The translations under genes were made by a program, and so were the position numbers. The notes below the pieces were generated by a model, which made no database searches, was not told where the DNA came from, and worked only from the letters and a program-made list of their open reading frames with translations. Positions 8,000 through 32,465 of a stretch of 62,932 nt of DNA are shown piece after piece; the first letter of the stretch is position 1; each line of letters starts with the position of its first letter. Source of the stretch: Deltaproteobacteria bacterium (GTDB lineage: Bacteria > Desulfobacterota > GWC2-55-46 > UBA9637 > GWC2-42-11). The stretch lies in NCBI GenBank assembly GCA_016223005.1, contig JACRPW010000040.1:1-62932 (forward strand), in the 5' to 3' direction.

Positions 8000-8112
8000 G
8001 AGTGGAAAACCCTCAAAAAAGGTTAAAGGCTAATGGCAAAAGGCAAAATGTTTTTGGTTTTTTCTTTAACCTTTAGCCGTGAAAAGCATGCTTTTCACCC
8101 CTTTGCCTGTTT

Positions 8113-8556
8113 TTACTCTTTTTCAATAATAACCTTAATATGTGCAGTAATATCCTGATGAAGTTTGACAGCAACCATATGTTCACCAATTGCCTTGATA
8201 GGGTCAGATAGTACAATCTTTCTACGGTCAATAGAAAGACCCTGTTCATTCAGGCTGGCGTCGATGTCCATTGAGGTGACAGAACCAAAAAGTTTGTCAT
8301 CATCACCAGCCTTTCTAACGAATTTCAAGATAATGCCCTCAAGTTTTTCACATAACCTTCCTGCCTCATCTTTTAGTTTTAGTAACTTCCTTTCAACCCC
8401 CTGCTTCTCATTTTCCCATATCTTTATATTTTGCTGTGTTGCCTCTACAACAAGCCCTTGCGGAAGGAGATAGTTTCTGGCATAGCCATCTGCCACTTTT
8501 ATTATCTCCCCCAGTTTACCCAGCGATGAAATATCCTCTTTTAATATGATTTCCAT
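8113..8556 (-). CDS. rplI: 50S ribosomal protein L9
   Basis: MEIILKEDISSLGKLGEIIKVADGYARNYLLPQGL. Size and rpsF-rpsR-rplI synteny fit. Confidence 0.93.
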   Translation of the reverse strand: MEIILKEDISSLGKLGEIIKVADGYARNYLLPQGLVVEATQQNIKIWENEKQGVERKLLKLKDEAGRLCEKLEGIILKFVRKAGDDDKLFGSVTSMDIDASLNEQGLSIDRRKIVLSDPIKAIGEHMVAVKLHQDITAHIKVIIEKE

Positions 8557-8661
8557 TCTATGCCTCCGTTTGATTTAAGGTCTATAGGAAAACGATGTAA
8601 TGATGTAACGCGGGAAAAGTTTTTCTTTCTAGCTTTTCTCGCCTTTCCCGCCTTTTTTGTG

Positions 8662-8940
8662 TTAAATAGTTGCACTTGCAAATGGTAGAATTGCTATAAC
8701 CCGTGCCCTTTTTATTGCCTCGGTAACTGTCCTTTGATGTTTTGCGCAATTGCCTGTTATGCGGCTCGGCATGATTTTGCCGCGTTCTGAAATGAACGAC
8801 TTAAGCATCCTTGCATCCTTGTAATCTATCGGGATAGAGGCATCCGCACAAAAACGGCATATCTTTTTCTTTTGATAAATCTTTTTCCCTCCCTGTTTAT
8901 CGTCACGGGTTGTTTTCTTATGACTTTTTTTATTATACAT
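8662..8940 (-). CDS. rpsR: 30S ribosomal protein S18
   Basis: [43 protein letters not shown]. Confidence 0.93.
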
Positions 8941-9280
8941 TTTTTACCTCCACAGTCGTCTCCGCCTCCTTGGGAACAGGGGGCTTTTGCGCCTTCTGCT
9001 GCCTTATAGTCTGAAACCGCAGGCAATTTTCATTTAGTCTGAGCATTCTTTCAATCCCTTTTGGCACAGACGCATCACCCGAAAAATTAATAAGCACATA
9101 GTATCCTTCCTGATGACGTTGGATAGGATAGGCAAGTCTCCTTTTCCCCCATTCATCCACACTAATGATACTGCCTTTCAGATCTTCTGCCGTAGTCCCT
9201 GCCTTCTGAATAATACCTTTTATGGTCTCGTCTACTGCATCAGGCTTAATAATAAACACAATCTCATACAAACTGCTCAT
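8933..9280 (-). CDS. rpsF: 30S ribosomal protein S6
   Basis: [10 protein letters not shown]...[13 protein letters not shown]. It overlaps the rpsR start by 8 nt. Confidence 0.92.
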
Positions 9281-9657
9281 ATTAAAACCTCCTTATGGAT
9301 TTTGTCTTAACACTTAAGACAATTAAGCCACCTGCCTCTTTAGGCAAAGGGCAAGGATAATTTATATATCTACTATAAATAAACATCATAAGGCAAGAGT
9401 TTTTTTAAGGTCTTAAGGGGGTCAAATCTTTTCAGCCTGTTGAAAAACTCTTCTAAAAGCATTTCACAATAACATTTCAAAGGAGGAAAAGGGGAAGGAT
9501 ACCCCTTTCTTATCTCTGACACAAACTATGATACATTACCGTACATTATTTGTATTTGTGCCATTTTCAAATTGGGTTAAAATAATAATGCAAACTGTAT
9601 TTTGTTATGCTATATAATTTCCAATAAATAATGCTATTTAAAAATAGGGGTAAATAA

Positions 9658-10965
9658 ATGACAACACTTATTTCATTCTTAATAGTTCTCGGTATACTTA
9701 TATTTGTCCATGAACTGGGGCATTTTTTGGTTGCTAAGAAAAGCGGGGTTGGGGTTTTAAAGTTTTCTCTCGGGTTCGGGCGAAAACTCATAGGCTTTAA
9801 AAAGGGTGAAACAGAATACCTTATATCTCTACTGCCTCTGGGCGGATATGTAAAAATGATTGGTGAGGAAACAGGTGAAGATGTGAAAACAGAAGACAGG
9901 GAAAAGTCCTTTGCAAATAAACCTGTGTCCACAAGGGCAGGCATCGTATTTGCAGGTCCTGTAATGAACCTTGTCCTTGCGCTGCTCCTATTCCCTGTTA
10001 TCTACATGCTCGGCATCCATGTGCCTGAATATATGGATAAACAGCCTGTAGTCGGGTATGTCTTGAAGGACAGTGCCGCATCAAAGGCAGAACTAAAGGC
10101 AGGTGATGTCATCCTATCTATTGATGGTAAAAAGATAGAGACATGGGAAACATTTGAATCCCTCATTATCTCAAACCCTGATAAAAACCTTCGTCTGACA
10201 ATTAAGAGAGATAGTAATATATTAGAAAAAGACCTTACCCTTACATCTTCACAACATAACGGCAGTGGTGTAAGCGGAATTTTACCTCCTATGAACCCTG
10301 TTGTTGGAGGTTTGGCAAAAAACTATCCGGCAGAAAATGCAGGGCTAAAGGTCGGGGATACAATAATTGCGATAAATAGCAGGGGGATAAATCACTGGTC
10401 AGAAATACAGCGGATGATTCAGGAAAGCAGCGACAATGAAATGGAAATGGCTGTAAAAAGAAACGGCGATGCATTAAGTCTTAAAATAAAGCCTATATGG
10501 AATGAGGATGCAAAGATATATGTAATAGGCATCTCCCCAAGTCAGGATATGATTATGAAAAGATATGGGCCTGTTGACGCTGTTATAATAGGGACAAAAA
10601 AGATGGTGGATATGACTATATTTACATTTATCATTATTAAAAAACTTTTTGTTGGTGAGGTATCCATTAAGACACTTGGAGGACCGCTCATGATTGCACA
10701 GGTTGCAGGACAGGCTGCGGAATCAGGACTCACAGCGTTTTTATCCCTTATGGCTGCCTTAAGCCTTCAGTTGGGCATACTTAACCTACTGCCAATACCT
10801 GTTCTGGATGGCGGCCATCTCCTGTTCTTTGCTATAGAAAAACTGCGGAGAAAACCTTTAAGCGAGAAGATTATGAATGTCGCCCAGCAGGCAGGGATTG
10901 CCCTTCTGGTACTCCTTATGGTGTTTGTTACATACAATGACATATTGAGATTTGTCGGTAAGTAG
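9658..10965 (+). CDS. rseP: RIP site-2 zinc metalloprotease RseP (M50)
   Basis: HELGHFLVAK, PDZ segments, LNLLPIPVLDGGH, and multiple TM helices. Confidence 0.92.
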   Translation: MTTLISFLIVLGILIFVHELGHFLVAKKSGVGVLKFSLGFGRKLIGFKKGETEYLISLLPLGGYVKMIGEETGEDVKTEDREKSFANKPVSTRAGIVFAGPVMNLVLALLLFPVIYMLGIHVPEYMDKQPVVGYVLKDSAASKAELKAGDVILSIDGKKIETWETFESLIISNPDKNLRLTIKRDSNILEKDLTLTSSQHNGSGVSGILPPMNPVVGGLAKNYPAENAGLKVGDTIIAINSRGINHWSEIQRMIQESSDNEMEMAVKRNGDALSLKIKPIWNEDAKIYVIGISPSQDMIMKRYGPVDAVIIGTKKMVDMTIFTFIIIKKLFVGEVSIKTLGGPLMIAQVAGQAAESGLTAFLSLMAALSLQLGILNLLPIPVLDGGHLLFFAIEKLRRKPLSEKIMNVAQQAGIALLVLLMVFVTYNDILRFVGK

Positions 10966-10967
10966 GA

Positions 10968-11663
10968 ATGAAAATCCTTGCTATAGACACAGGAATGCCA
11001 TCAGGCAGTATAGCGATCCTTGAAGATGATAGTTTAATAGCAGAATGTATGCCCTGTGCAGAAAAGACCCATGCTGAAAAACTCCTGCCGTCTATAGACA
11101 GCATCCTTAAATCCAGCGGTATAAGATTAAATGATATAGACTGCTTTGCAGTAACCATAGGACCAGGCTCATTCACAGGACTGCGCATAGGTATTTCCAC
11201 TGTAAAGGGCTTTGCATGGTGCCTGAAAAAACCTGTTGTCGGTGTGTCAACCCTAAAAACACTTGCAATGAATATTCTGCACTCTGATAAACTTATCTGC
11301 CCTATCCTTGATGCACGGAAAGAAGAGATATATGCAGGCATATACAAAAGGGAAGAGGAAACCCTGACTGCTGAAAAGGATGACTGTGTAATAAAACCTT
11401 GTGAACTGGTTAAGCATTTGAACAGACAAACCATATTTCTTGGTGGCGGCATTAAAATTTATGGGGATGTAATTAAAAGTGAACTTGGAGATAATGCTGT
11501 TTTTGCCCCTCATGACCTCTGGCACATACGGGCATCAAATATAGCAAAACTTGCATTAAGAGAGGTAGAGAAAGGTAATATCCAGTCCCCTGAAACTATA
11601 GTGCCGTATTACATAAGAAGGTCTGAGGCAGAGACAAAACTTAAGCAATTTATCTTGACATAA
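10968..11663 (+). CDS. tsaB: tRNA t6A37 biosynthesis protein TsaB (YeaZ)
   Basis: ILAIDTG..., GPGSFTGLRIGISTVKG. Size about 230 aa. Confidence 0.85.
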   Translation: MKILAIDTGMPSGSIAILEDDSLIAECMPCAEKTHAEKLLPSIDSILKSSGIRLNDIDCFAVTIGPGSFTGLRIGISTVKGFAWCLKKPVVGVSTLKTLAMNILHSDKLICPILDARKEEIYAGIYKREEETLTAEKDDCVIKPCELVKHLNRQTIFLGGGIKIYGDVIKSELGDNAVFAPHDLWHIRASNIAKLALREVEKGNIQSPETIVPYYIRRSEAETKLKQFILT

Positions 11664-11701
11664 ATTTGTAATAAGATGTAAAAATATGATTATCATTTGG
11701 C

Positions 11702-11983
11702 ATGGTTTGCATGAAGAATGAACATATCCTTTCACTCCTTGAAGAGACAGCAGAAAGATTTGGGGTTAAACTGCGGTATGAAGACCTTAAAAAGGGAGAG
11801 GTTGACACGCAGGGCGGCTCTTTTGTTTTAAAGGGGGAGAGGTATATATTCATCCACAAAAATCTGCCCTTGCTGGAAAAGGTCAGGGTTTTAGAAGAAG
11901 AACTTGCAAAACTGGATTTTTCAGATGTATATATCATCCCTGAGGTCAGGGACAGGTTGGAAAAGATAAAGACTACAATCTAA
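11702..11983 (+). CDS. hypothetical small protein
   Basis: 93-aa ORF with no recognisable motif. Start is uncertain (ATG 11702 or 11711) and there is no clear SD. Confidence 0.4.
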   Translation: MVCMKNEHILSLLEETAERFGVKLRYEDLKKGEVDTQGGSFVLKGERYIFIHKNLPLLEKVRVLEEELAKLDFSDVYIIPEVRDRLEKIKTTI

Positions 11984-11999
11984 TATCCCGGAGTTTAAA

Positions 12000-12467
12000 T
12001 TGAAAGGTATTAAAAAGATACTTGTGCCTGTTGATTTCTCAGAATGTTCAAAGAACGCATTTTATTACAGCCTTGATATTGCAAGGGAGACAAAGGCATC
12101 CGTATTCCTGTTGAATGTAATAGATTCTGAACTTGTAAATGAGATGGTAAGGCTTGACATTTCTACAAAGGGACAGATTAAGAAAAAACTTGAAAAGAAT
12201 GCAAAGTCAGAACTTGACAGGATAATGGCAGAATCCCTGAAAAAGAGAAAGGGTGTCAAAATAAGAGAGAGGCTTGAAGAAGGCATACCCTTTATCAAGA
12301 TACTTAAAGAGTCAAAGGATTTAGGCGCTGACATTATAGTAATGGGCAGTTTTGGCACATCCTCACCCATGCTGAGGTTCTTTTTTGGTTCTACAGTAGA
12401 GCAGGTTTTAAGGGGGAGCAAGATCCCTGTTGTATGTGTGCCTCTGTCTGAGGTAATAGAAGGGTAA
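12000..12467 (+). CDS. universal stress protein (UspA family)
   Basis: KILVPVDFSECS...IVMGSFGTS...GSTVEQVLRGSKIPVVCV. TTG start 7 nt after GGAG. Confidence 0.85.
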   Translation: MKGIKKILVPVDFSECSKNAFYYSLDIARETKASVFLLNVIDSELVNEMVRLDISTKGQIKKKLEKNAKSELDRIMAESLKKRKGVKIRERLEEGIPFIKILKESKDLGADIIVMGSFGTSSPMLRFFFGSTVEQVLRGSKIPVVCVPLSEVIEG

Positions 12468-12469
12468 AT

Positions 12470-12588
12470 AAAAATTCAAAACTCAAAACGCAAAAGTCAA
12501 AACTACAATTCAAAATTCAAAACTTTTCATGAAAATAGTTTTAAGGTTTTGAGTTTCAGTTTTGAGATTTGACATTTGAGTTTTGAGT
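12470..12588. repeat. inverted arrays of degenerate TCAAAAN heptamers (long imperfect hairpin)
   Basis: Left arm is ttcaaaactcaaaacgcaaaagtcaaaactacaattcaaaattcaaaac. The central palindrome is ttttcatgaaaa. The right arm is made of complementary gttttga-type units. Confidence 0.85.
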
Positions 12589-12616
12589 TATCTTTAAAAA
12601 ACAGGAGGCAAGTTTG

Positions 12617-13078
12617 ATGACGGTTAAAAAAAATCCAAAGGCTTTAATCTTTACTGCAATACTGTGCAGCATGTTCTTGTTTGCGGTCAATAATGCAGTT
12701 GCAGCCCCGCAAGAAAAGACAAAGGCAGACCCTAGCAAAACTGGCACATGGAGCGGCAAAGGCGGGAAGGAATCAGGCAGGGAGAATTTTCTGGCATGGT
12801 GCATAAACTGCCATGGTGAAAAGGGCAAGGGAGACGGTCCATTGTCAACCACTTTGGGACAGGGTATAAAACCAAGAAATCTAACAGATTCTAAACTCCT
12901 GTCCACACGCAAGGATGATTTTTTGTTTAAGGTGATACGGGAAGGCGGGGCATCAGTGGGGTTTTCCGAAGCCATGATGCCGCATAAGGACATGTTGAGC
13001 GATGAAGAGATAAAAAATGTAATCCTTTATATAAGAAGCGATATATGTAAATGCAAATACCAGGGCAGCGGGAAATAG
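12617..13078 (+). CDS. monohaem class-I c-type cytochrome, secreted
   Basis: AGGAGG lies 8 nt upstream of the ATG. Signal peptide, CINCH haem-binding site, and a distal Met candidate (AMMPH). Confidence 0.85.
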   Translation: MTVKKNPKALIFTAILCSMFLFAVNNAVAAPQEKTKADPSKTGTWSGKGGKESGRENFLAWCINCHGEKGKGDGPLSTTLGQGIKPRNLTDSKLLSTRKDDFLFKVIREGGASVGFSEAMMPHKDMLSDEEIKNVILYIRSDICKCKYQGSGK

Positions 13079-13117
13079 TCCATTACCGCTGATATATTTC
13101 AAAAGAGGAGGGGGATT

Positions 13118-13747
13118 ATGCATTTAATGGGTTGGCTTGATGAAAGGACAGGGATAAAAGAATACTGGAAAAAAAAGAAGGCGCTCCTTATCCCAGACCA
13201 TGTAACATTCTTTTACTGTTTCGGCGGAATATCCCTGACAATACTTTTCCTGCAATTAGTCAGCGGGCTTTTTATGACGCTCTTTTATGTGCCAAAGCCG
13301 GAAGAGGCATTCAAAAGCATCCTACGCATGAGCAGTGAAATTCCACTGGGCGGGCTTACACGAAATATGCACCGCTGGGGCGCGACAATCCTTATTGCAA
13401 CAGTCATAACCCACATGTTCAATGTCTTTTATCACAAGGCATTTCAGAGGCCCAGAGAACTGAACTGGCTTTCAGGTTTTACCATGTTTATTGTGGTATT
13501 CCTGTTCAGCATTACAGGTATGATACTTCCATGGAACTGGACATCTTACTGGGTTCTTGTTATGTGGACTGATTATGTGGGCACATTCCCTGTAATCGGA
13601 CAATTTCTTACAGGACCGCTTATTGAATATTTCAGCGTAGTCCGCAGTTTTGTTATACATGTACTTATTCTGCCGCTCATCTCGGCTGTATTTTTAATAC
13701 TCCATTTCAAGATGGTAAAGAGGCACGGCATATCAGGACCGCTATAA
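13118..13747 (+). CDS. cytochrome b6-like subunit (cytochrome b N-terminal domain)
   Basis: Four TM helices with two His pairs (RNMHRWGATILIATVITH and FVIHVLILPLISAVFLILH). Strong SD gaggaggggg. Confidence 0.88.
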   Translation: MHLMGWLDERTGIKEYWKKKKALLIPDHVTFFYCFGGISLTILFLQLVSGLFMTLFYVPKPEEAFKSILRMSSEIPLGGLTRNMHRWGATILIATVITHMFNVFYHKAFQRPRELNWLSGFTMFIVVFLFSITGMILPWNWTSYWVLVMWTDYVGTFPVIGQFLTGPLIEYFSVVRSFVIHVLILPLISAVFLILHFKMVKRHGISGPL

Positions 13748-13820
13748 TATCATCTCATGGGATATTATTGTGGGGACAGATTTCAAATCCCCAGTTGCCA
13801 TTCATAGGAGGAGGGAAAAA

Positions 13821-14504
13821 ATGGACGAAAACAAAGACAAAGACCCAAGGTATGCCCCGCCGTATCCGCAGAACTTTCATCCGTTCTGGCCCAGACACGC
13901 ATTAAAGGCAAGTCTGGTTGTATCGGTTGTTGTCTTATTGATTGTGGGACTTGCGTATTTTTATGGTCTTCCGTCAGATTACACTATGACAATCCCTGAC
14001 GAAGGCATGTATATACCCGGTCCTGAGTGGTATTATCTCTTTTTCTTTCAGCCCTTCTGGTATTTAAAGGGCGGACTTGCAAAGTGGCAGTTTATTGCTA
14101 CCTTTATAATACCGCTTCTTGTATTGACATTTACTGTCTTGATTCCATTTATCTTTAAGAAACTAAAACCAGTCAGTGGTTTTGGTTTAAAGGTTATCAG
14201 GATACTGCCGCCTGCCATTGTTTTTGCTGCGATCATGCTGGGCATTGTTTTTAGCGGCTACCATGCTAAATTGAACGGCTGTATAGCATGCCATAATATT
14301 CAGGCAGGCGTGAGGCATGACCTGCCGCCAATGAATGTTCTTGAATATTACAAAGGACATAAGCAGGTTCAGATAAAGGTGGGCAAGTACCGTGCAAGCA
14401 AATCAGGCACAGAAGGCGAATCTGTTATAGGTCAGGAGATAGAGACATATAAGGACGCTAACTGGCATATGCGGCATCTATATGAACCGACATTTACATG
14501 GTAA
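13821..14504 (+). CDS. cytochrome bc/b6f subunit-IV-like protein fused to a C-terminal haem-c site
   Basis: SD aggaggaggg precedes ATG 13821. PEWYYLFFFQPFW motif, TM helices, then CIACH. The ORF-track start at 13770 is read through a palindromic repeat and is unlikely. Confidence 0.8.
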   Translation: MDENKDKDPRYAPPYPQNFHPFWPRHALKASLVVSVVVLLIVGLAYFYGLPSDYTMTIPDEGMYIPGPEWYYLFFFQPFWYLKGGLAKWQFIATFIIPLLVLTFTVLIPFIFKKLKPVSGFGLKVIRILPPAIVFAAIMLGIVFSGYHAKLNGCIACHNIQAGVRHDLPPMNVLEYYKGHKQVQIKVGKYRASKSGTEGESVIGQEIETYKDANWHMRHLYEPTFTW

Positions 14505-15649
14505 TGAAAATGACTCGTCTCATTTTTCTCTGCATACTATTCACTATTCACTGTTCACTGTTCACTGTAGTAGCACACGCCCAGACAATCAAAGAATTCC
14601 CCATCCCTACAGCATACAGCCGTCCTGTTGACATAGCGGCTGCCTCCAGCGGTGATATATGGCTTGTGGAGGAAAGTGCAAATAAACTTGCAAGGTTTGA
14701 TGTCCAAAAAGAGAGTTTTAAAGAGATTGACATACCATATAAAAATGCCGGACCATCCAGCATATCTATAAATGACGATGTTGTCTGGCTCACCCTTTCC
14801 CTTGATAACAGTATTGTAAGTTTCACTATTTCTTCAAAGACATTTAAAAGATTTCAGATACCAACCAATGATTCGGTACCTTATGGGGTTGCAGTTGATT
14901 CAAGTAGTATTGTCTGGTTCACTGAAAGAAATGCAAACAAGATTGGAAGGCTTGAACCGTCCACAGGCAAATTCAAGGAATATCCTGTTCCAACACAGAA
15001 CAGCCAGCCTGCAGGCATTACAATAGGTCGTGACAGCATGATATGGTTCGCAGAGGCAAATGGAAATAAGATTGGCATGTTAGACCCTGCAGCAGGAAGC
15101 ATAACGGAATATGAAATACTTACAAAATTTGCAAACGCATCACGAATAACAACAGATAATGAAGGCAATATCTGGTTTACAGAGCAGAGTTCAAATAAAC
15201 TTGGTATGTTTAATGTATCAGCAAAAAAAATCAATAATGCCATTATACCAACACCTGCATCTGTGCCAACAGGCATAGCAGTAGATAAAAACAATATAGT
15301 TTGGTTCACTGAAAACAGAGGCAATAAGATAGGCAGATTTGACCCTCAAATACCGCTTTTTACAGAATACGAGATACCAACCCAGCGGAGCCTTCCGACA
15401 GGTATAACCATTGATAAAAATAGCACTGTATGGTTTACGGAGGTTGACAGGGATGCTAATAAACTGGGGATGATAAAAGACAGTCAGGGGTCAGGGGTTA
15501 AAAGTCAGGGGCCAGGGGATTTTTCTCCTATCAGGGAGAAAAATGGTCAGGAGTCAAGGAAAGAGACATTTAGCATAATCAGCGGTATAATCCTTATATC
15601 TGCTGCAATTATTATTCTGTATCTGTCAAGGAGACACAAGGGGAAATGA
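14498..15649 (+). CDS. secreted 7-bladed beta-propeller (Vgb/streptogramin-lyase-like, NHL-type repeats) with C-terminal TM anchor
   Basis: Signal peptide ends AHA/Q. Seven blades of type (I/V)WFTE..NK(I/L)G. C-terminal helix IISGIILISAAIIILYL. An alternative start at ATG 14504 overlaps the upstream stop (TAATG). Confidence 0.8.
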   Translation: MVMKMTRLIFLCILFTIHCSLFTVVAHAQTIKEFPIPTAYSRPVDIAAASSGDIWLVEESANKLARFDVQKESFKEIDIPYKNAGPSSISINDDVVWLTLSLDNSIVSFTISSKTFKRFQIPTNDSVPYGVAVDSSSIVWFTERNANKIGRLEPSTGKFKEYPVPTQNSQPAGITIGRDSMIWFAEANGNKIGMLDPAAGSITEYEILTKFANASRITTDNEGNIWFTEQSSNKLGMFNVSAKKINNAIIPTPASVPTGIAVDKNNIVWFTENRGNKIGRFDPQIPLFTEYEIPTQRSLPTGITIDKNSTVWFTEVDRDANKLGMIKDSQGSGVKSQGPGDFSPIREKNGQESRKETFSIISGIILISAAIIILYLSRRHKGK

Positions 15650-16713
15650 AAAAGGCATTAAGAACTGCTTACTGTTCACTGCTTACTGCTTACTTCTTAC
15701 TTCTTACTGTTAACTGTCTTGCCGCTGATTCTGTTATCACATTTTATTCAATCCCCACGCCTGTTAGTTTTTCTGTCAGTATTACAACGGATACAAATGG
15801 CACAGTATGGTTTGCCCAGTTAAACACCAACAAAATAGCATCGCTGAATACGGAAACCTCTGTTTTTAAAGAATACAGCATACCTACAGCAAAGAGTTAT
15901 CCTACAGATATTGTAAGCGATGCAAAAGGTATTATCTGGTTTGCACAGCAGGACGCAAACCAGATAGCGCGGTTTGACCCTAAGACATCAAATTTTCAGG
16001 AATATGAATCGCCGACCCCGCAGAGTCAGCCTTCACGGCTTGCAATAGATAAAACAGGCGGCATCTGGTTCACGGAATTTTTTGGGAATAAAATCGGAAG
16101 GCTCTTGCCGTCAACAGGCAAGTTCAAGGAGTATTCTATACCAACCCCAATGAGCCAGCCAATCGGGATAACTGTTGATAATAAAAGGATTGTCTGGTTT
16201 GTTGAAAGTCAGGGGAATAAACTCGGAAGGCTAAATCCGTCAAACGGCGAAATCAAGGAATTTCCTATTCCGTTTCCATTCTGCGTGCCGAATGAAATCG
16301 CATTGGATAAAAAAGGCAATATCTGGATTAGTGCAAGAAAAGACAGGAAACTCTTGATGTTCAATCCTGCCTCATCAAAATTCAAAGATTTTACCCTTCC
16401 AGGAAAAGGCGTGCCAGAAGGTATATCAGTTGATGAAAACAACAATATCTGGTATGCAGATAAACGGGGCAGCAAGGTTGGCAGATTAAACCCTGACACA
16501 GGCGAGTTTCTTGAATTTAATATAGGCATTGCCAATGGACAGCCGTTTGACATAACGATAGGACAAAAAAATAGTGTCCTGTTCACCGAACTAGTAGATA
16601 ACAAAATCGGTAAGATTAATGCCTCCCTCCTCTCCAAAAGACAGCAGGATACAAGTACCCTCTCTATAAGCCTTGACGGACAGCAGAAAGACCTTTTGAA
16701 ACAGGGACATTAG
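15646..16713 (+). CDS. secreted 7-bladed beta-propeller, paralogue of the previous gene
   Basis: ATGA start/stop overlap with the previous gene. Signal peptide ends CLA/AD. Seven WF(A/T)(E/Q)..NK(I/L)(G/A) blades. Confidence 0.8.
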   Translation: MKKALRTAYCSLLTAYFLLLTVNCLAADSVITFYSIPTPVSFSVSITTDTNGTVWFAQLNTNKIASLNTETSVFKEYSIPTAKSYPTDIVSDAKGIIWFAQQDANQIARFDPKTSNFQEYESPTPQSQPSRLAIDKTGGIWFTEFFGNKIGRLLPSTGKFKEYSIPTPMSQPIGITVDNKRIVWFVESQGNKLGRLNPSNGEIKEFPIPFPFCVPNEIALDKKGNIWISARKDRKLLMFNPASSKFKDFTLPGKGVPEGISVDENNNIWYADKRGSKVGRLNPDTGEFLEFNIGIANGQPFDITIGQKNSVLFTELVDNKIGKINASLLSKRQQDTSTLSISLDGQQKDLLKQGH

Positions 16714-16728
16714 AGGAATTGTCAGAGG

Positions 16729-17469
16729 TCATTCTTCAACCTTTTTCTTACCAAAGAGTCTTGCCAGTATAATACCTACTTCATAAAGCACAAGCATAGG
16801 CGCTGCCATAAGTAATTGGCTGAAGGCATCAGGTGTGGGGGTAAGGATTGCAGCGACAACAAAGATTAGCAGGACAGCATACTTCCTGTATTGTGTGAGC
16901 ATCTTTACATCAACTATCCCTATTTTTGCCAGAAAAAATATAAGAAGCGGCATCTCAAATACTATGCCGAATGCAAGCAGGAACTTTGCAACAAAGGAGA
17001 AATACTCATTCATTGAAAGCATTGGTTTTAAAGAATCCGTTGCATAACTCAAGAAATATTTAAAACCTACAGGGAAAACAATATAGTATCCAAAGGTGGC
17101 GCCGCCTATAAAAAGGATTGTGGCAGACATGACAATCGGGAGTGCCCAGCTCCTTTCTTTTTCGTACAGGCCAGGTGATATGAACAGCCATATCTGGTAG
17201 AAGATAACAGGGCTTGCCAGAAATATCCCGCATATAAGTGCTATCTTCAGGTATGTAAAGAACGGCTCAATAACACCTGTAAAGACCATGAAGGCATTGC
17301 CTTGCGGCATTGCATCTATAAGTGGTCTTGACATGAAATCAAATGCCTCTTTTGAATAAAAGTATGCGATGCCAAAACCAATGCCTACGGCAATTACACA
17401 ATTTATGAGTCTTTTTCTTAATTCAACGAGGTGAAGGGTAAAGGGAAGTCTCTCGTCAGGCTTTGCCAA
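16729..17469 (-). CDS. tatC: twin-arginine translocase subunit TatC
   Basis: [13 protein letters not shown], six TM helices, size 246 aa, downstream of tatA. Confidence 0.92.
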
Positions 17470-17755
17470 CTGGATTCCCTCCTGCGGTTTTATTCACATC
17501 CGATTTAACAGTATCTTTTGCAGTTGCAGTGCCGGACTGCTCCTGTTTTGCAGGAGGTGCATCAGGTTTTTCCAAGTCAACACTCACATCCTTTTCTATC
17601 TTTGACACACTGCTCTTTAAATCTTCTGTTGCCTTCTTGAACTCTCCAAATGCCCTGCCAAGTGCTGTTGCAATATCAGGGAGTTTATGGGGTCCGATAA
17701 CTATTAGTCCAATTATAAGTATAACAATCAATTCTGGAAGTCCGATACCAAACAT
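17456..17755 (-). CDS. tatA: twin-arginine translocase TatA/TatB family protein
   Basis: [42 protein letters not shown]. Confidence 0.9.
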
Positions 17756-17887: not shown

Positions 17888-17916
17888 TTGACATTCTACA
17901 GAATGTAGAATATATT
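17888..17916 (+). promoter_or_regulatory. sigma70-type promoter with embedded BlaI/CopY-type operator
   Basis: TTGACA (17888-17893), then the 17-nt palindrome TTCTACAGAATGTAGAA (17894-17910), then TATATT (17911-17916). The ATG at 17924 is 7 nt after the -10 and has no SD, so the transcript is probably leaderless. Confidence 0.7.
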
Positions 17917-17923
17917 TAGAGAC

Positions 17924-18361
17924 ATGAAAAAAATATTATCAGTATTCGGGGCAGACAAAAGGGATTTTGAGGGTGTGCTCGGCAGTTTGGAAAGGGATGT
18001 TATGGATGCCCTTTGGGAAAAAGAGGAGGCTTCAGGCAGGGAGGTATATGAGCATCTTAAGTTCTCAAGGGATATTGCCATAACCACGGTTTTGACTGTT
18101 ATAGAGAGGCTTGTAAAAAAAGGTCTTGTTAAAAAGACAAGGGGCGAGTCAACATATATTTATACACCTGCAAGTTCCAGAGAAGATTTCACACAGAATG
18201 TATCAAGGGATGTATTTAAAATGGTGATGCGGATGTCTTCATCCGATGCGGTTGCATCATTTGTTGATATTGTTGCTGATATAAGTCCAGAAGAACTTGA
18301 CAGGCTGAGAAGACTTATTGATGAAAAGAAAAAGAAGATGGAACTGACAAAAGAGGTGTAG
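17924..18361 (+). CDS. BlaI/MecI/CopY family winged-helix repressor
   Basis: LGSLERDVMDALWEKEEASGREVYEHL...TTVLTVIERLVKKGLVKK. It has no C-terminal CxCx4CxC copper site. Confidence 0.85.
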   Translation: MKKILSVFGADKRDFEGVLGSLERDVMDALWEKEEASGREVYEHLKFSRDIAITTVLTVIERLVKKGLVKKTRGESTYIYTPASSREDFTQNVSRDVFKMVMRMSSSDAVASFVDIVADISPEELDRLRRLIDEKKKKMELTKEV

Positions 18362-18362
18362 G

Positions 18363-19172
18363 ATGCCTGATATAATTTTACAGTGCATGAGTATATTGTC
18401 AATGGCAAGTGTATATACTGTACGCGGTGCTGTTCTACTCTTTGTAACCGGCGTTATATACAGTCTTATAAAAAATAGTATTGTTGTCTTAAGTGCAGCA
18501 AGAAATATCAAGAGACTGCCTGTCAAGGACTATGGACTTGGGACACTTCTTATAGATAATGCCTCTGTTACCGCATTTACATCAGGTTTTTTGAGGCCAA
18601 AGATATACATCTCAAAGGGGTTATTGGAATCCCTGACTTATGATGAGATAAAGGCTGTATTCATACACGAAGTGCATCATAAGAAAAACCATGACCCATT
18701 AAAGTTTTTGTTAAGTTCTGTAGTAAGAGACACCTTCTTTTATGTGCCGATAGTGAAATATTGTGTAAAGGTCTTTCACACAATAAAGGAAAATGCCGCT
18801 GACAAGAGAGTTGTGTCCATGACAGGAAAACCCATTGAACTCGCCAGCGCAATACTAAAGGTGTCAACTGCTAACAGCAGTAAATTTTATGCATTCGCAT
18901 CAATAAGGGGTGTAGAATCTATAGATGCCAGAATCAAGAGGCTTATAGGTGAAAGGGATAACAGTGTTGAGCTGCCATCTGCAAGAAATATTCTGGCGAG
19001 TTCCATTGTATTACTTTTTTTACTGTTAGTCCCGGTTACGGTCAGCTATGGTTTTGACAAGAGATGCAATGATGAGATGTGCAGGATAACACACCATCAT
19101 CAATCAGCGAAGGAATGTAATACAATGGCAGCAGGAGATATGGACTGCACGGTTCACTGTAATGTAAAATAA
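18363..19172 (+). CDS. BlaR1/MecR1-like M56 peptidase (signal transducer) with Cys/His-rich C-terminal tail
   Basis: TM helices and HEXXH (FIHEVHHKKNHD). After the last TM helix comes the tail CNDEMCRITHHHQSAKECNTMAAGDMDCTVHC. There is no penicillin-binding sensor domain. Confidence 0.75.
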   Translation: MPDIILQCMSILSMASVYTVRGAVLLFVTGVIYSLIKNSIVVLSAARNIKRLPVKDYGLGTLLIDNASVTAFTSGFLRPKIYISKGLLESLTYDEIKAVFIHEVHHKKNHDPLKFLLSSVVRDTFFYVPIVKYCVKVFHTIKENAADKRVVSMTGKPIELASAILKVSTANSSKFYAFASIRGVESIDARIKRLIGERDNSVELPSARNILASSIVLLFLLLVPVTVSYGFDKRCNDEMCRITHHHQSAKECNTMAAGDMDCTVHCNVK

Positions 19173-19189
19173 ATTTTTTTCTAAACAAA

Positions 19190-19212
19190 TTCTACAGACT
19201 GTAGAATAAAAT
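19190..19212 (+). promoter_or_regulatory. second BlaI/CopY-type operator plus -10-like box
   Basis: TTCTACAGACTGTAGAA (19190-19206) is immediately followed by TAAAAT. The arrangement matches 17894-17916. It lies 19 nt upstream of the SD/ATG of the 19231 gene. Confidence 0.65.
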
Positions 19213-19230: not shown

Positions 19231-19731
19231 ATGAGACAAGGTATCAGGTTTTTGATTGCAATCTTTAAGAAGGGAGGGGCTATTAAATTACCCGTTTTGG
19301 CATTGCTTGTAGGTATTGTAGGTATAATTTATATCAATCAAGCACAGGCATCGTATCACAGCAAAGGTATGGATATGGGTCACCAAGGTATGGACATGAG
19401 GAACAATGTTGCCCAGTTGCAAAAAAAGACGGCAAAGAAACCTCTTGAGATTATATGGCCAAAAAAAGGTGAAGTAGTTAATCAGAAGGAGATAGAGGCA
19501 AAGATACGGATTGCAGATGAGTATAAGGATATGGTTGGACATATCCATGTTTATGTGAATGGCAAGAGGATGGACCATGCAAGCATAAAAGAGGACATCC
19601 TTCTTGTGTGGGACCTTAAAGAAGGTGAAAATACACTTGAACTGGCATTATCACTAGGCGACAAACATGAGGAAGGTTCAGGCGCTAAATCAGTTGGAGA
19701 CAGCGTAACATTTAAAGTAAAGACTAAATAG
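19231..19731 (+). CDS. exported Met/His-motif protein with DUF4399-like domain
   Basis: N-terminal TM/signal segment, HSKGMDMGHQGMDM motif, and GHIHVYVNG...LELALSLGDKHE resembling DUF4399. Confidence 0.6.
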   Translation: MRQGIRFLIAIFKKGGAIKLPVLALLVGIVGIIYINQAQASYHSKGMDMGHQGMDMRNNVAQLQKKTAKKPLEIIWPKKGEVVNQKEIEAKIRIADEYKDMVGHIHVYVNGKRMDHASIKEDILLVWDLKEGENTLELALSLGDKHEEGSGAKSVGDSVTFKVKTK

Positions 19732-19822
19732 AAGTTTATAGAAATCCCAATTAAATAATTGGGCAACCTTTATAAAAAGTGCTATAATTTAGCACAAGGC
19801 TTAAAAAAGGGAGGTGATACTA

Positions 19823-20158
19823 ATGGGTGTTTTAAGATTTATTGCTGCGGCAGTTCTTGTGATTTCACTGGCAGTATTGCCTGCGGGTGCTGAAGAGAAA
19901 AAGGGGCAGATGGGTGGGGGAATGATGATGGGTGAGGGCATGATGAACTGTCCTATGATGAAGGGAGAAATGGGTGACATGCTGGGCATGATGAAGGAGA
20001 TGATGGGCATAATGAAGGATATATCTCACAATCCTACTGATGCCCAGAAAAAAAGACTTGAAGAGATGATGAAGAAGATGGACGGAATGATGAAGATGCA
20101 TGATGAGATGATGAAGCAGAAACAGGGGACGATGAAGCAAAAGAAGGAAGGGATGTAG
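19823..20158 (+). CDS. secreted methionine-rich protein (putative Cu(I) binder)
   Basis: GGGAGG lies 8 nt before the ATG. Signal peptide ends AGA/EE. I count 25 Met in the 88-residue mature part. NCPMMKG motif is present. Confidence 0.7.
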   Translation: MGVLRFIAAAVLVISLAVLPAGAEEKKGQMGGGMMMGEGMMNCPMMKGEMGDMLGMMKEMMGIMKDISHNPTDAQKKRLEEMMKKMDGMMKMHDEMMKQKQGTMKQKKEGM

Positions 20159-20234: not shown

Positions 20235-20936
20235 ATGAAAAAGATATTGATAACATTAAGTTTGGTTGCTTTAATTATAGTTCCATTATCTGCTTATGCC
20301 TGCAGTATGGGGCAAGGGCAGATGATGGATATAGGTGCAAGCCCATGGTTCCAACAAGGTATTACACTAACATTAAAAAATGCTGAAAATCTGGAACTGG
20401 ACGAGAGGCAAAAAAATAAATTGGAGGGTATCAGGGATAAATACACAAAGGATATTATAAAGATTGATGCTGAATTAAAGACAAATGACATAGACCTGAA
20501 CAATTTACTTAAAATGGACAACATTGACCTCTTGAAGGTTAAAAATACAGTCAAAAAGATAGAGGCAATAGAGTCGCAGATAAGATACCTTCGCATAGAG
20601 GCATTCACAGAGGCAAGAAAGGTGCTGAACCCTGAACAGAAAGGGAAACTTAAAAAACTAATGGAAATGCCGTATGGTCAGATTAAAGGCGGTATGGGGC
20701 AAGGAATGGATTCTTCTATGATGAAGGATGAGATGACAGACTGCCCAATGATGAAGGGCATGATGGGCGGCAGTGGCATGATGGGACAGGGAATGATGGG
20801 AGGCATGGATAAGGGTATGGACTGTCCTATGATGAAAGGCGGTATGGGCGAAATGATGGGCGGTGGTATGGGAGGCGGTACAGCAGGTGAACAGACAGCA
20901 AAAACTGAAGTTGCGGCATCTACAAAACAAACATAA
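20235..20936 (+). CDS. Spy/CpxP/ZraP-family periplasmic protein with Met/Gly-rich tail
   Basis: Signal peptide, two LTXXQ-like motifs (LDERQ, LNPEQ), and a tail with two DCPMMKG motifs and GMMGQGMMGG runs. Confidence 0.7.
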   Translation: MKKILITLSLVALIIVPLSAYACSMGQGQMMDIGASPWFQQGITLTLKNAENLELDERQKNKLEGIRDKYTKDIIKIDAELKTNDIDLNNLLKMDNIDLLKVKNTVKKIEAIESQIRYLRIEAFTEARKVLNPEQKGKLKKLMEMPYGQIKGGMGQGMDSSMMKDEMTDCPMMKGMMGGSGMMGQGMMGGMDKGMDCPMMKGGMGEMMGGGMGGGTAGEQTAKTEVAASTKQT

Positions 20937-20960: not shown

Positions 20961-21272
20961 GTGATTGCAGAATTTAAAAATCCTGTAGATGTGGGCGGCA
21001 GTAATGAACTTGTCTTTGATGTAAAGTTAGACACCCATTCAGTAAATCTCGATGCATTCAATTTTAATGAGGGTATTGTCCTCAAAGACGATAAAGGAAA
21101 TATCTATAAACCTATTGCAGCAAAGCCCTCTGGTTCAGGACATCACAGGGAGGCTGAAGTAAAATTTAAAAACCCCGGAACCACAGGATTTATTGAACTG
21201 GTGGTTAAAGATATGGGTGGTGTGAAAGAAACTGTATTCAAATGGCAGACTCCAAAGGGGATAAAGATGTAA
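20961..21272 (+). CDS. hypothetical protein, in frame with and one stop codon away from the previous gene
   Basis: 103-aa ORF (GTG) with a GSGHHREAEVKF motif. It has no SD and no signal peptide of its own, and shares the frame of 20235-20936. Confidence 0.45.
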   Translation: MIAEFKNPVDVGGSNELVFDVKLDTHSVNLDAFNFNEGIVLKDDKGNIYKPIAAKPSGSGHHREAEVKFKNPGTTGFIELVVKDMGGVKETVFKWQTPKGIKM

Positions 21273-21378
21273 GATTTGTAAAGGGTTCAAGGGGTCAATG
21301 TGTCAGAAGAACAGAGCGAAAAACTTTGGCTCTATAACTTTTTGATACATGGACTCTCACAAAACGGAGGTGACTAAT

Positions 21379-23688
<2,310 letters not shown>

Positions 23689-23920: not shown

Positions 23921-24105
23921 TGTAGGTGTGGTTAAGGTTTTTAATACATGGACGCATGGTTTAGATTTGACCCTAATTATTTCTACAAAACCAATCAGCA
24001 TAACAGATTTTATTACCGGGCTTTTAAGTCTTGTTGTGTTTTCTGTTGTTGTTGGTATAATATTTACACTTGTATATAACTCAATTCAGAGAAAGGAAGG
24101 GTAAG

Positions 24106-24495
24106 ATGAGAAAAACATGGATAGTAATTACAGTAACTCTAACGGTTATAGGTATAGCCCTATGGTTTATCCCAACAGCGTCAACAGTGGCCGCAAATCC
24201 AAAAGGTGGAGAAACGAAACCAATCCTTTCACCTCAATTATTTAAGGGCAAAACAGCCTACACATATCAGATTGCAAAGGAGATACCAGAGGTTCTTGAC
24301 AGCATCTACTGCTACTGCAACTGCCAGATGCATTCAGGGCATAAGAGCCTCTTATCATGCTATACGGATAAACATGCTGCATTTTGCGATATATGCCAGA
24401 ATCAGGCGATAAGGGCGTATGAACTTTATAAAGAAGGCAAAGATATTATGACTATAAAAAAGACAGAGGATAAGGAGTTTGGTGCAAGGAGATAG
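24106..24495 (+). CDS. PCYCGC-motif family membrane-anchored protein
   Basis: SD gaaaggaagg precedes the ATG. One TM helix. IYCYCNCQMHSGHKSLLSCYTDKHAAFCDIC matches the PCYCGC-domain pattern. Confidence 0.7.
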   Translation: MRKTWIVITVTLTVIGIALWFIPTASTVAANPKGGETKPILSPQLFKGKTAYTYQIAKEIPEVLDSIYCYCNCQMHSGHKSLLSCYTDKHAAFCDICQNQAIRAYELYKEGKDIMTIKKTEDKEFGARR

Positions 24496-24498
24496 TTA

Positions 24499-25572
24499 AT
24501 GCATAGTGTTTATAAAAGTATAAAATATTTTCTGACCATCTGCGTATCTCTTTTAACATTTTATCCCTTAACCGCAGATGCCCTTTCTCCAGATGAAGAT
24601 GCAAATATAAAGATATACGAGGCATTAAGCCCGAGTGTTGTAAATATAATCAACACCACAGTCTCCTATGACTTCTTCTTAAACCCGCTTCCACAAAGCG
24701 GTTCAGGCTCAGGCTCTGTTATTGATAAAAAAGGTAATATCCTTACAAACTATCATGTGGTGGAAAATGCCCAGATGCTTGAGGTTACCCTTTCTGACAG
24801 CAGTAAATGGGAGGCAAAGGTCATCGGCGCTGACCCGAGTAATGACATTGCGGTTATCAGGATTGATGCACCTTCTGACAAACTCAAACCTATTCAATTT
24901 GGTAATTCTGCTGGACTTAAGGTTGGACAAAAGGTCCTTGCTATTGGTAATCCCTTTGGTCTGGAAAGAACTTTAACAGTCGGCATTGTCAGTTCTCTTG
25001 GCAGGACAATGAGGGCTGCTAATGGCAGGCTTATGAGGGGGATAATACAAACGGATGCGGCAATAAATCCCGGGAATTCAGGTGGTCCTCTTTTGGACAG
25101 CGATGGCAGAATGATTGGTGTTAATTCCGCCATATTCAGCCCTGTTGGAGCAAGCGTTGGTATTGGTTTTGCAATACCTGTAAATACAGTCAAAAAGGTT
25201 GTCCCACAGTTGATAGAAAAGGGCAGGGTTGCAAGACCATGGCTTGGTATTACGGGACAGGATATAGACAAAGAATTAGCAAGGGTGTTAAAACTCCCTT
25301 CAGACGGCATTTTGATTGCAGAGGTTGTGAAAGGGAGTCCGTCAGATAAGGCAGGGATAAGAGGCGGAAGCAGGGTTATAACGAGGGGAAATTTTCAGAT
25401 AATAACAGGCGGCGACATGATAGTCAGTATAAATGGCAGAAAGATAAAATCTATGGATGATATGGTTGAATATGTGGAATCAAGGGCATCAGGTGAATCC
25501 ATTGATATAATAATACTGCGGAACGGACAGAAAAAGACAATTAGATTAACCCTGGCAGAGATGCCGCAGTGA
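24499..25572 (+). CDS. htrA: HtrA/DegP-family periplasmic serine protease (trypsin-like + PDZ)
   Basis: GSGSGSVID, TNYHVV, DIAVIRI, GNSGGPLLD, and a C-terminal PDZ domain. Confidence 0.9.
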   Translation: MHSVYKSIKYFLTICVSLLTFYPLTADALSPDEDANIKIYEALSPSVVNIINTTVSYDFFLNPLPQSGSGSGSVIDKKGNILTNYHVVENAQMLEVTLSDSSKWEAKVIGADPSNDIAVIRIDAPSDKLKPIQFGNSAGLKVGQKVLAIGNPFGLERTLTVGIVSSLGRTMRAANGRLMRGIIQTDAAINPGNSGGPLLDSDGRMIGVNSAIFSPVGASVGIGFAIPVNTVKKVVPQLIEKGRVARPWLGITGQDIDKELARVLKLPSDGILIAEVVKGSPSDKAGIRGGSRVITRGNFQIITGGDMIVSINGRKIKSMDDMVEYVESRASGESIDIIILRNGQKKTIRLTLAEMPQ

Positions 25573-32112: not shown

Positions 32113-32465
32113 TGGTGGAGGCGGTGGGAATTGAACCCACTTCCGGGAGTGCCTATCCATGGCATGCTACATACATATCCTCTGTTTTAAATCTCACACC
32201 CAAATCCCCCAGAGACAGGGTATTTGAGGTGCCAGCCTGATTAAATCTCGCCTTTCATGACTTCAGGCAAAGTTTGAAAGGCAATCCTGCTATCTGTCGT
32301 CCCTTTAGCCCTGCAGGATGAGGCTCAAAGGACGCTGACTGAACTTAAGCAGCCAGAGCGTAATTATAGTCGTTTGCGACTATTGTTTTCTGGTGGTTTC
32401 ACGAGTCCCCATACCTCGGTATGCAGCCATTGGTTTCGGTCATCCCGTCGAATCCTGTCGCCCCC
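32113..32465 (-). ncRNA. ssrA: tmRNA (SsrA)
   Basis: 5' GGGGGCGACAGGATTCGACGGG and 3' GGGTTCAATTCCCACCGCCTCCACCA. The tag ORF is GCA AAC GAC TAT AAT TAC GCT CTG GCT GCT TAA (ANDYNYALAA) at 32345-32377. It lies downstream of smpB. Confidence 0.93.

Follow-up and report, generated by a model that had tools for sequence, protein, structure and literature searches.

The locus and its gene pair

We describe a compact regulatory locus on contig JACRPW010000040.1 of a Deltaproteobacteria bacterium (assembly GCA_016223005.1), analysed within a stretch of 62,932 nucleotides that we refer to as the window. Between positions 17888 and 19212 the forward strand carries a gene for a BlaI/MecI/CopY-family winged-helix repressor (17924–18361, 145 aa) and a gene for a minimal M56 zinc metalloprotease (18363–19172, 269 aa) ending in a short tail of cysteine and histidine residues. 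Two copies of a palindromic operator, to which no strand is assigned, lie one ahead of the pair and one behind it, and the genes further downstream include one for a copper-exporting ATPase. Sequence analysis and comparison with related loci establish the gene pair with its motifs, the operators, the promoter geometry and the copper/silver regulon. We have moderate confidence that the whole represents a one-operon proteolytic switch for copper and silver export, in which metal would trigger proteolysis of the repressor.

The repressor matches Penicillinase_R (PF03965) over the entire profile (positions 1–115 of 115; 99.9 bits, cutoff 22.6; E = 1.4e-28), and its relatives in the Protein Data Bank (PDB) are Mycobacterium tuberculosis BlaI (2G9W, the closest, 2.8e-16), MecI (1OKR) and 1SD4. 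Its top NCBIfam match is CopY/TcrY (TIGR02698), at 63.3 bits against a cutoff of 121.95. The protein contains no cysteine and a single histidine, and no conserved Cys or His was found across 18 family repressors. A repressor without Cys cannot sense Cu(I) in the manner of CopY; the absence of the C-terminal CxCx4CxC site of CopY, already pointed out in an earlier reading made from the sequence only, thus rules out direct CopY-type sensing. A different feature is shared with the repressors of beta-lactam resistance. Residues S112-F113 (encoded at 18257–18262), within A111-S112-F113-V114-D115, align with N101-F102 of MecI (1OKR), which we take to be the site at which the repressor is cleaved under BlaR1/MecR1 signalling. 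The motif A-S-F-(V/I)-(D/N) recurs in almost every one of the 18 family repressors, with A-A-F in one; the residue before the Phe is Ser here and Asn in MecI.

The protease gene begins with an ATG at 18363, one nucleotide beyond the repressor stop, and its product matches Peptidase_M56 (PF05569) with 53.7 bits (cutoff 31). The zinc-binding and catalytic motif HEVHH (H102, E103, H106; 18666–18680) is followed by a conserved downstream glutamate, E143 (18789–18791), and these four residues are identical in all of 66 family sequences. The arrangement of repressor and HEVHH protease is therefore as originally described, whereas its description as a ‘rewired BlaR1’ was loose wording: the protein is a minimal M56 protease and not an orthologue of BlaR1, scoring 35.8 bits against a cutoff of 400 for the NCBIfam model blaR1_generic and 20.6 against 1200 for MecR1. 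A Pfam scan found no transpeptidase or beta-lactamase domain in it. The lack of a penicillin-binding domain and the NCBIfam scores far under cutoff rule out beta-lactam sensing.

Hydropathy analysis delineates two hydrophobic regions in the protease, at residues 8–46 and 204–233, so that the layout reads as an N-terminal hydrophobic segment with C8, the protease core, a C-terminal membrane helix at about residues 207–231, and the tail. The best PDB matches in both fold and sequence are the structures of Staphylococcus aureus BlaR1 (8EXP, 8EXQ and 8EXS). Aligned to 8EXP, the family profile spans the core, continues through BlaR1 residues 309–327 (transmembrane helix 4, TM4) and stops just before the tail, which places the tail where BlaR1 has its extracellular penicillin-binding domain. 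By homology to the BlaR1 structure, the core would be cytoplasmic and the tail extracytoplasmic, with the N-terminal Cys segment predicted on the same side of the membrane as the tail. The same alignment lays S-L-L-K292-R293-R294-L295-I of BlaR1 on R190-I-K-R193-L194-I of the family (dibasic motif R190 to L194 at 18930–18944), its numbering being confirmed by F284 of the 8EXS F284A mutant. In S. aureus BlaR1, autocleavage takes place at R293|R294. Conservation of this motif among the 66 sequences is 100% for R190, 83% for R193 and 91% for L194. An AlphaFold2 (AF2) model built from 51 sequences has a mean predicted local distance difference test score (pLDDT) of 85.1 and a predicted template modelling score (pTM) of 0.77, and was used instead of an earlier model from 11 sequences (pLDDT 66.6).

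A conserved Cys/His tail

The tail (19065–19169) can be summarized as C235-NDEM-C240-RIT-H244-HH...C249...DMD-C262-TV-H265-C266-NVK and is the candidate metal sensor of the system. Its sequence reads CNDEMCRITHHHQSAKECNTMAAGDMDCTVHCNVK, and the C-terminal end of the protease is ...YGFDKRCNDEMCRITHHHQSAKECNTMAAGDMDCTVHCNVK. The tail had been introduced as a 36-residue element standing in place of a penicillin-binding domain; its presence and the missing domain hold, and its length needs adjustment, since the string quoted for it has 32 residues and the stretch past the last membrane helix about 36–39 (38 when the helix is taken to end at residue 231). The motif C-x2-H-C, rather than C-x2-C-H, rules out attachment of a c-type haem.

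Lack of conservation of the tail in orthologues had been named beforehand as one of the findings that would refute the proposal. We find the tail retained in about 57 clusters of proteases. In an alignment of 51 sequences C8, C235, C240, C262, H265 and C266 are invariant, as are the zinc-site residues H102, E103, H106 and E143, and H244 is conserved to at least 90%; in the alignment of 66 sequences the tail ligands and C8 remain 85–98% conserved, and this conservation reaches down to about 30% identity. On this count the proposal is not refuted.

How widespread is this family? A word-indexed search of 5.8 billion proteins returned only 12 relatives of the protease, all from metagenome assemblies. 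A full HMMER scan of 1.84 billion cluster representatives with the family profile gave 47,594 M56-like proteins at E <= 1e-3 and only 109 at E <= 1e-30, with a sharp step in score after the approximately 57 clusters (50% identity; E < 1e-55), which match from end to end. Nearly all of these share a tail of the form C-x3-(H)-C-x2-3-H ... C-x2-H-C, usually followed by more His. The majority of members extend the N-terminus by about 40 residues, which adds one more membrane helix, and these long members conserve a further Cys seven positions ahead of C8 (‘FCQSxFVRC’, C-x6-C); the two are predicted to share one side of the membrane. Scanning genome contigs with a single protein yielded one metagenome-assembled genome (MAG), that of locus L003, and a tblastn search of plasmids matched only distant M56 proteins and no member of the tail family. 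The protease family is real and conserved, and is seen only in metagenomes and MAGs.

Many short M56 proteases just outside this family (P0072–P0162) end in other short Cys-rich tails, such as GCSPETCRSMGCM, CKTKVCHFVKC and CC...CC, a hint that minimal sensors of the extracytoplasmic space may be diverse. A separate subfamily from soil metagenomes (L029–L083) comprises M56 proteases of about 320 aa that have no tail and end in ...MGCGPALLLGKLF; up to three paralogues of this subfamily occur per contig (L055, L066, L068).

Operators and promoters

Operator 1 (17894–17910, TTCTACAGAATGTAGAA) and operator 2 (19190–19206, TTCTACAGACTGTAGAA) share the family core TTCTAC-N5-GTAGAA. With up to two mismatches allowed, the palindrome occurs at only these two sites in the 62.9-kb window, the two copies first noted; 0.19 sites are expected, and none of 100 shuffled sequences reached the observed count. 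A sequence with one mismatch to the operator core, TTCTACGGTCAATAGAA at 8220–8236, lies within overlapping open reading frames (8113–8556 on the reverse and 8165–8473 on the forward strand) and may be a chance match.

Operator 1 exactly equals the 17-nt spacer of promoter P1 (17888–17916; TTGACA at 17888–17893, TATATT at 17911–17916), which was identified by reading the sequence and by sigma-70 scoring. No other site in the 7 kb between 17.4 and 24.6 kb matches sigma-70 promoters as well as P1, which agrees with the consensus at 11 of 12 positions. The repressor ATG (17924) follows the −10 element by 7 nt, which leaves no room for a Shine-Dalgarno sequence and implies a leaderless repressor mRNA, in agreement with the first description of this promoter. 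We collected about 28 loci of the family (L001–L028 and L086; 297 kb in total), and the same layout is kept there: in 15 distinct promoter sequences the operator makes up all 17 nt that separate TTGAC(A/T) from a TATNNT-type −10 element, with the ATG 6–7 nt past the −10 in 10 of the 15. The closest relative, L086, has the site-1 layout of the window and an operator 2 identical to the window copy. The recurrence of this geometry marks promoter occlusion and the leaderless start as features of the family.

Exact copies of TTCTAC-N5-GTAGAA number more than 40 in the 297 kb, essentially all at two positions. The second of these is directly after the protease stop, where the operator is found in 15 distinct sequences of relatives; in the window, 18 nt separate operator 2 from that stop and 24 nt separate it from the ATG at 19231. 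Across relatives whose proteins are 33–61% identical the operator arms are invariant, the central 5 nt vary freely, and there are no compensatory changes. This pattern argues for recognition by a protein and against an RNA hairpin, and the repressor very probably binds these operators. The half-sites had been equated with the TACA/TGTA of BlaI/MecI/CopY boxes. This assignment holds only loosely, as the fourth base is A or G in relatives and the conserved element is the core TTCTAC-N5-GTAGAA; compared with the TACAnnTGTA boxes of cop and bla operators, the half-site spacing is wider by one base.

A putative internal promoter P2 has two −10 candidates in the window (19202–19212), TAGAAT at 19202–19207, which consists of the right arm of operator 2 plus a T, and TAAAAT at 19207–19212. 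The TAAAAT box, noted at the outset as adjoining the second palindrome ahead of the gene at 19231, is indeed present and is confined to the window and L001. What recurs at site 2 in relatives is a T-run or TTGnnn element resembling a −35, placed 5–6 nt upstream of the operator, together with TAGAA(T) contributed by the right arm, at a distance of 17–18 nt. These conserved elements probably mark an internal promoter P2 with its −10 inside the operator. An intrinsic terminator at operator 2 is ruled out, there being neither a G+C-rich stem nor a U tract.

Copper and silver exporters as the regulated genes

Five genes follow operator 2 on the forward strand of the window. The first (19231–19731) encodes a protein that is either secreted or anchored in the membrane, carries the Met/His motif HSKGMDMGHQGMDM and has no Pfam or NCBIfam match. 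It is succeeded by genes for a Met-rich secreted protein (19814–20158, 114 aa), a homologue of which adjoins cusA in L026; a periplasmic protein resembling the Metal_resist/LTXXQ (CpxP/Spy-like) group, with a Met-rich C-terminus (20235–20936; PF13801 1.7e-6 and 28.6 bits, just under the cutoff of 29.2; PF07813 2.6e-5 and 25.3 bits, above the cutoff of 24.3); and a small protein of 103 aa with a weak DUF5643 match (20961–21272). The last gene (21349–23688) encodes CopA, a P1B ATPase of the Cu(I) type that has two YHS domains at its N-terminus (TIGR01511 8.6e-174; PF04945 in two copies). Its translation contains CPC, YNxxxxP and MxxSS, which we take to be the motifs of Cu(I) P1B ATPases.

The window is the only locus with a CopA-type output. 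At every other locus with sufficient flanking DNA the pair precedes a pump of the CusCBA type, with the genes arranged in about 20 loci as repressor, protease, in some cases a small secreted protein, outer-membrane factor, CusB-type adaptor, in some cases a small protein, and CusA-type resistance-nodulation-division (RND) pump. A search for M56 proteins with Cys/His tails beside copper genes in other genomes, proposed as a check in the sequence-only reading, was thus borne out by CusCBA genes in these loci and by the tailed clusters described above. The CusA-type pump scores 1283 bits against TIGR00914 (cutoff 701). All nine full-length pumps, which are 47–55% identical to Escherichia coli CusA, have Met at the positions of M573, M623 and M672 of that protein and a CusA-like TM4, AIGAM(I/V)D(G/A)A...EN. 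The Met triad and the CusA-like TM4 rule out Zn, Co or Cd specificity of the linked pumps. Together, the CusA Met triad in the pumps of relatives and the Cu-type CopA of the window indicate that the regulon is one of Cu(I)/Ag(I) export throughout.

Proposed mechanism

How could these elements act together? In the resting state, a dimer of the Cys-free repressor would occupy both TTCTAC-N5-GTAGAA operators. At operator 1, which constitutes the spacer of the leaderless, autoregulated promoter P1, it would close that promoter; at operator 2 it would cover the core of P2, or block read-through, ahead of the efflux genes. The co-translated M56 protease would sit in the membrane with its catalytic core towards the cytoplasm and the Cys/His tail and N-terminal Cys towards the periplasm, where Cu(I) or Ag(I) would be bound by thiolate and imidazole ligands in Cys2His-type sets, similar to the C-H-C site of CsoR. 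Metal binding would then shift the two membrane helices on either side of the protease core and activate the protease, probably with BlaR1-like autocleavage at K192|R193 in the dibasic R-x-K/R-R-L motif. The active enzyme would cut the repressor at S112|F113 (A-S|F-V-D) in its dimerisation domain, whereupon both operators would be vacated and the pump and sensor pair would be expressed more strongly.

In this scheme, the binding of DNA, the binding of metal by the tail, the activation and the cleavage are steps that we infer from sequence comparison. The course from metal on the tail through repressor proteolysis to expression of the copper genes, as first suggested, is favoured by the conservation of the tail ligands, of both operators and of the exporter neighbours, and by a repressor devoid of metal ligands; its binding, cleavage and induction steps keep their conjectural status. 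The parts differ in strength. A proteolytic relay is probable, and so, to a similar degree, is copper or silver as the signal. For the tail acting as the direct metal receptor we see about an even chance, and the fuller proposition, that the tail and the N-terminal Cys form an extracytoplasmic Cu(I)/Ag(I) site directly gating the M56 protease, appears possible, if slightly short of evenly balanced.

Several observations weigh against the proposed mechanism. The tail matches no Pfam or NCBIfam family, known metal-binding domains included, and it is predicted with low confidence in the AF2 model (pLDDT 47–55), which permits no structural inference about a metal site. Instead of binding metal, the periplasmic cysteines, of which there are four to six, could be joined in disulfides. 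In many loci a small secreted protein containing His and Met is encoded directly after operator 2, and this could be the true metal receptor. With a −35 element as weak as TTCTAA ahead of P2 in the window, operator 2 may be no more than a roadblock. Finally, the family includes orphan proteases (L002, L015, L020, L021) with no adjacent repressor or pump, which, considered with a second repressor in L023 that heads its own cus operon and has no protease, indicates that the two partners can be unlinked.

In L023, where one contig carries both repressors, the protease-paired one (6680–8783) is associated with several copies of variant operators, TTTTAC-N5-GTA(G/A)AA, and the protease-less repressor heads an operon on the opposite strand (8898–15586) in which a small gene is followed by genes for the outer-membrane efflux protein (OEP), CusB and CusA, with canonical operators at 15030 and 15570.

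Alternative explanations

The tail might be no more than a structural cap, held together by Zn or by disulfides, with the signal being received by a small secreted protein, a periplasmic chaperone or a membrane part of the protease; alternatively, the repressor might be turned over constitutively and regulation achieved otherwise. The secreted protein of 133–185 aa, without family assignment, that follows operator 2 in many loci would be a natural candidate for such a receptor, and a repressor–protease pair on a Priestia megaterium plasmid, situated in a metal island, does without a C-terminal tail and has Cys and His in its N-terminal loop. Yet in the approximately 57 clusters nothing outside the catalytic core is as well conserved as the tail motif, which defines them, and the small downstream protein is of three unrelated types, is absent in L007, L011, L016 and L028, and has a different protein in its place as the first gene of the window. 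We consider this explanation unlikely.

The Priestia megaterium pair (L085; plasmid NZ_CP069608.1, 116202–117460) is distantly related and couples a BlaI-family repressor without Cys to an M56 protease of 284 aa, neighboured by genes for a heavy-metal P-type ATPase, a YdhK-family protein and a copper-binding four-helix-bundle protein, and by ars genes. The His, Cys and Met residues of the protease are in its N-terminal loop, HHKGESFWDGMLMCCNSHSW, which contains ‘MLMCCNSHSW’. A tail is thus not universally needed in metal-linked M56 proteases. The pair suggests that metal-linked minimal M56 switches form a wider class that includes cultured Firmicutes, and the N-terminal loop may be as important as the tail.

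The same architecture and relay could also operate with the tail as a thiol-redox sensor, in which the formation or scrambling of disulfides among the 5–6 extracytoplasmic cysteines, catalysed by copper or driven by oxidants, would activate the protease; the system would then respond to thiol stress that copper causes in the envelope and not to metal bound by the tail. The conserved residues are mostly Cys and are paired (C-x4-C, C-x2-H-C and, in long members, C-x6-C), and the homology-based topology places them in an oxidising compartment. Copper catalyses the formation of non-native disulfides in the periplasm, and immediately downstream of CopA the window encodes a PCYCGC protein and a DegP-like protease, both of them products of genes for envelope quality control. 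Against this, H244 and H265 are as strongly conserved as the cysteines, and additional His runs flank the motif in most members, which fits coordination of a metal better than a pure disulfide switch. Moreover, the regulon consists of specific Cu/Ag exporters rather than Dsb or thioredoxin genes. A purely redox-sensing tail therefore seems to us quite improbable.

That operator 2 acts at the RNA level, as a hairpin governing processing, stability or attenuation of a single blaI-to-copA transcript, is very improbable: the palindrome does form a hairpin of 8 bp in a structure with a folding energy of −8.6 kcal/mol (z = −2.1), and no strong −35 element precedes it in the window, but the hairpin is weak, is followed by no U tract, and has the arms of operator 1, which stay unchanged in 15 distinct relatives as only the central 5 nt vary.

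Comparison with known systems

The closest parallel that we know of is the PetR/PetP pair of the cyanobacterium Synechocystis sp. PCC 6803 (Slr0240 and Slr0241). PetR is reportedly degraded in the presence of copper in a manner that requires the BlaR-type membrane protease PetP, and the pair is said to form the switch between plastocyanin and cytochrome c6, acting on petE, petJ and two more genes. As in the system described here, where the genes are 1 nt apart, a BlaI-family regulator is encoded with a BlaR-type protease that has no sensor domain; we take it that PetR has no CopY metal site and PetP no penicillin-binding domain. In view of this precedent, the earlier assertion that the regulatory logic was known for beta-lactams and not for metals was overstated. 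Compared by description, the two systems differ in their targets, which here are CusCBA or CopA rather than petE and petJ, and in the defined C-x4-C...H...C-x2-H-C tail and two-operator layout of the present family. To our knowledge, the copper-sensing determinant of PetP has not been defined.

With BlaR1/BlaI and MecR1/MecI of S. aureus the pair shares the M56 HExxH core, a final membrane helix followed by a predicted extracellular part, a dibasic motif aligned with the autocleavage site, a candidate cleavage position in the dimerisation domain of the repressor, an adjacent and co-transcribed repressor gene, and palindromic operators that overlap the promoter. It differs from them in the size of the protease (269 aa as opposed to 585–601), the smaller number of N-terminal membrane helices, the Cys/His tail in place of the penicillin-binding domain, the orientation of the regulator genes, which are co-directional with their targets here and divergent there, and the nature of these targets, which are Cu/Ag exporters. 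M. tuberculosis supplies in BlaI (Rv1846c, 2G9W) the closest solved repressor structure. The M. tuberculosis BlaR (Rv1845c) is likewise an M56 protease without a penicillin-binding domain; in contrast to the present family, it does not belong to the Cys/His-tailed group and is not known to be linked to copper export, and its signal may be related to beta-lactams.

Among copper regulators, CopY/TcrY of Enterococcus hirae belongs to the same winged-helix family and likewise represses a copper P-type ATPase operon from palindromic boxes. CopY, however, senses Cu(I) itself through its C-terminal CxCx4CxC and is released uncleaved, whereas the repressor described here has no Cys and has a protease as its partner. 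CusRS of E. coli likewise governs a CusCBA pump (cusCFBA) and detects extracytoplasmic metal, as the pair is proposed to; it does so with a histidine kinase and a response-regulator activator, to which the protease and repressor are unrelated.

Significance

Control of copper and silver export is generally attributed to the two-component systems CusRS and CopRS or to the cytosolic regulators CueR, CsoR and CopY. The family described here would add a transmembrane proteolytic relay that reads metal outside the cytoplasm with two small proteins. The following appear to be new: a distinct family, found in metagenomes and MAGs only, that governs copper and silver export; a conserved candidate sensor made up of 36 residues and the N-terminal Cys; and a 17-bp operator used twice per locus, once in a leaderless, autoregulated promoter whose spacer it occludes.

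If the tail and the N-terminal Cys do form a metal site that directly gates the protease, the pair would constitute a third, self-contained paradigm for the control of copper and silver efflux, beside CusRS and CueR/CsoR/CopY, and would provide the first M56/BlaR-type protease with a defined determinant for sensing a ligand other than a beta-lactam. It would then offer a template for signal perception in M56 proteases without sensor domains, including PetP, mycobacterial BlaR and other Cys-tailed members. Few of the tens of thousands of M56 proteases that lack a penicillin-binding domain have a known signal, so that even one defined determinant would make the general question testable. The system would lend itself to such work, with a 36-residue sensor containing six conserved ligands, a twice-used 17-bp operator, a leaderless promoter and known outputs. 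In practical terms it could serve as a compact candidate biosensor module for Cu and Ag, and as a marker of metal-resistance islands in uncultured subsurface bacteria.

Other genes in the window and in related loci

Several of the related loci encode between cusB and cusA a four-helix-bundle protein (TIGR02436) resembling the Avd proteins of diversity-generating retroelements (L016, 11837–12229; L018, 12059–12496; L019, 6608–7000). In the window, the PCYCGC protein (PF13798) and the DegP/HtrA-like serine protease with a PDZ domain are encoded at 24070–25572, after CopA and on the same strand. No operator was found ahead of these two genes, which may be further envelope or copper-stress genes.

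Upstream of the locus, at 14498–16713, are two tandem paralogous genes for secreted repeat proteins (383 and 355 aa) with beta-propeller-like units marked by ‘N-K-I/L-G/A’, followed on the reverse strand by tatC (16729–17469) and tatA (17456–17755); all four were named from their translations. Further along, the reverse strand carries at 32113–32465 a gene for transfer-messenger RNA (tmRNA), with the tag peptide ANDYNYALAA, beside two tRNA-Arg genes.

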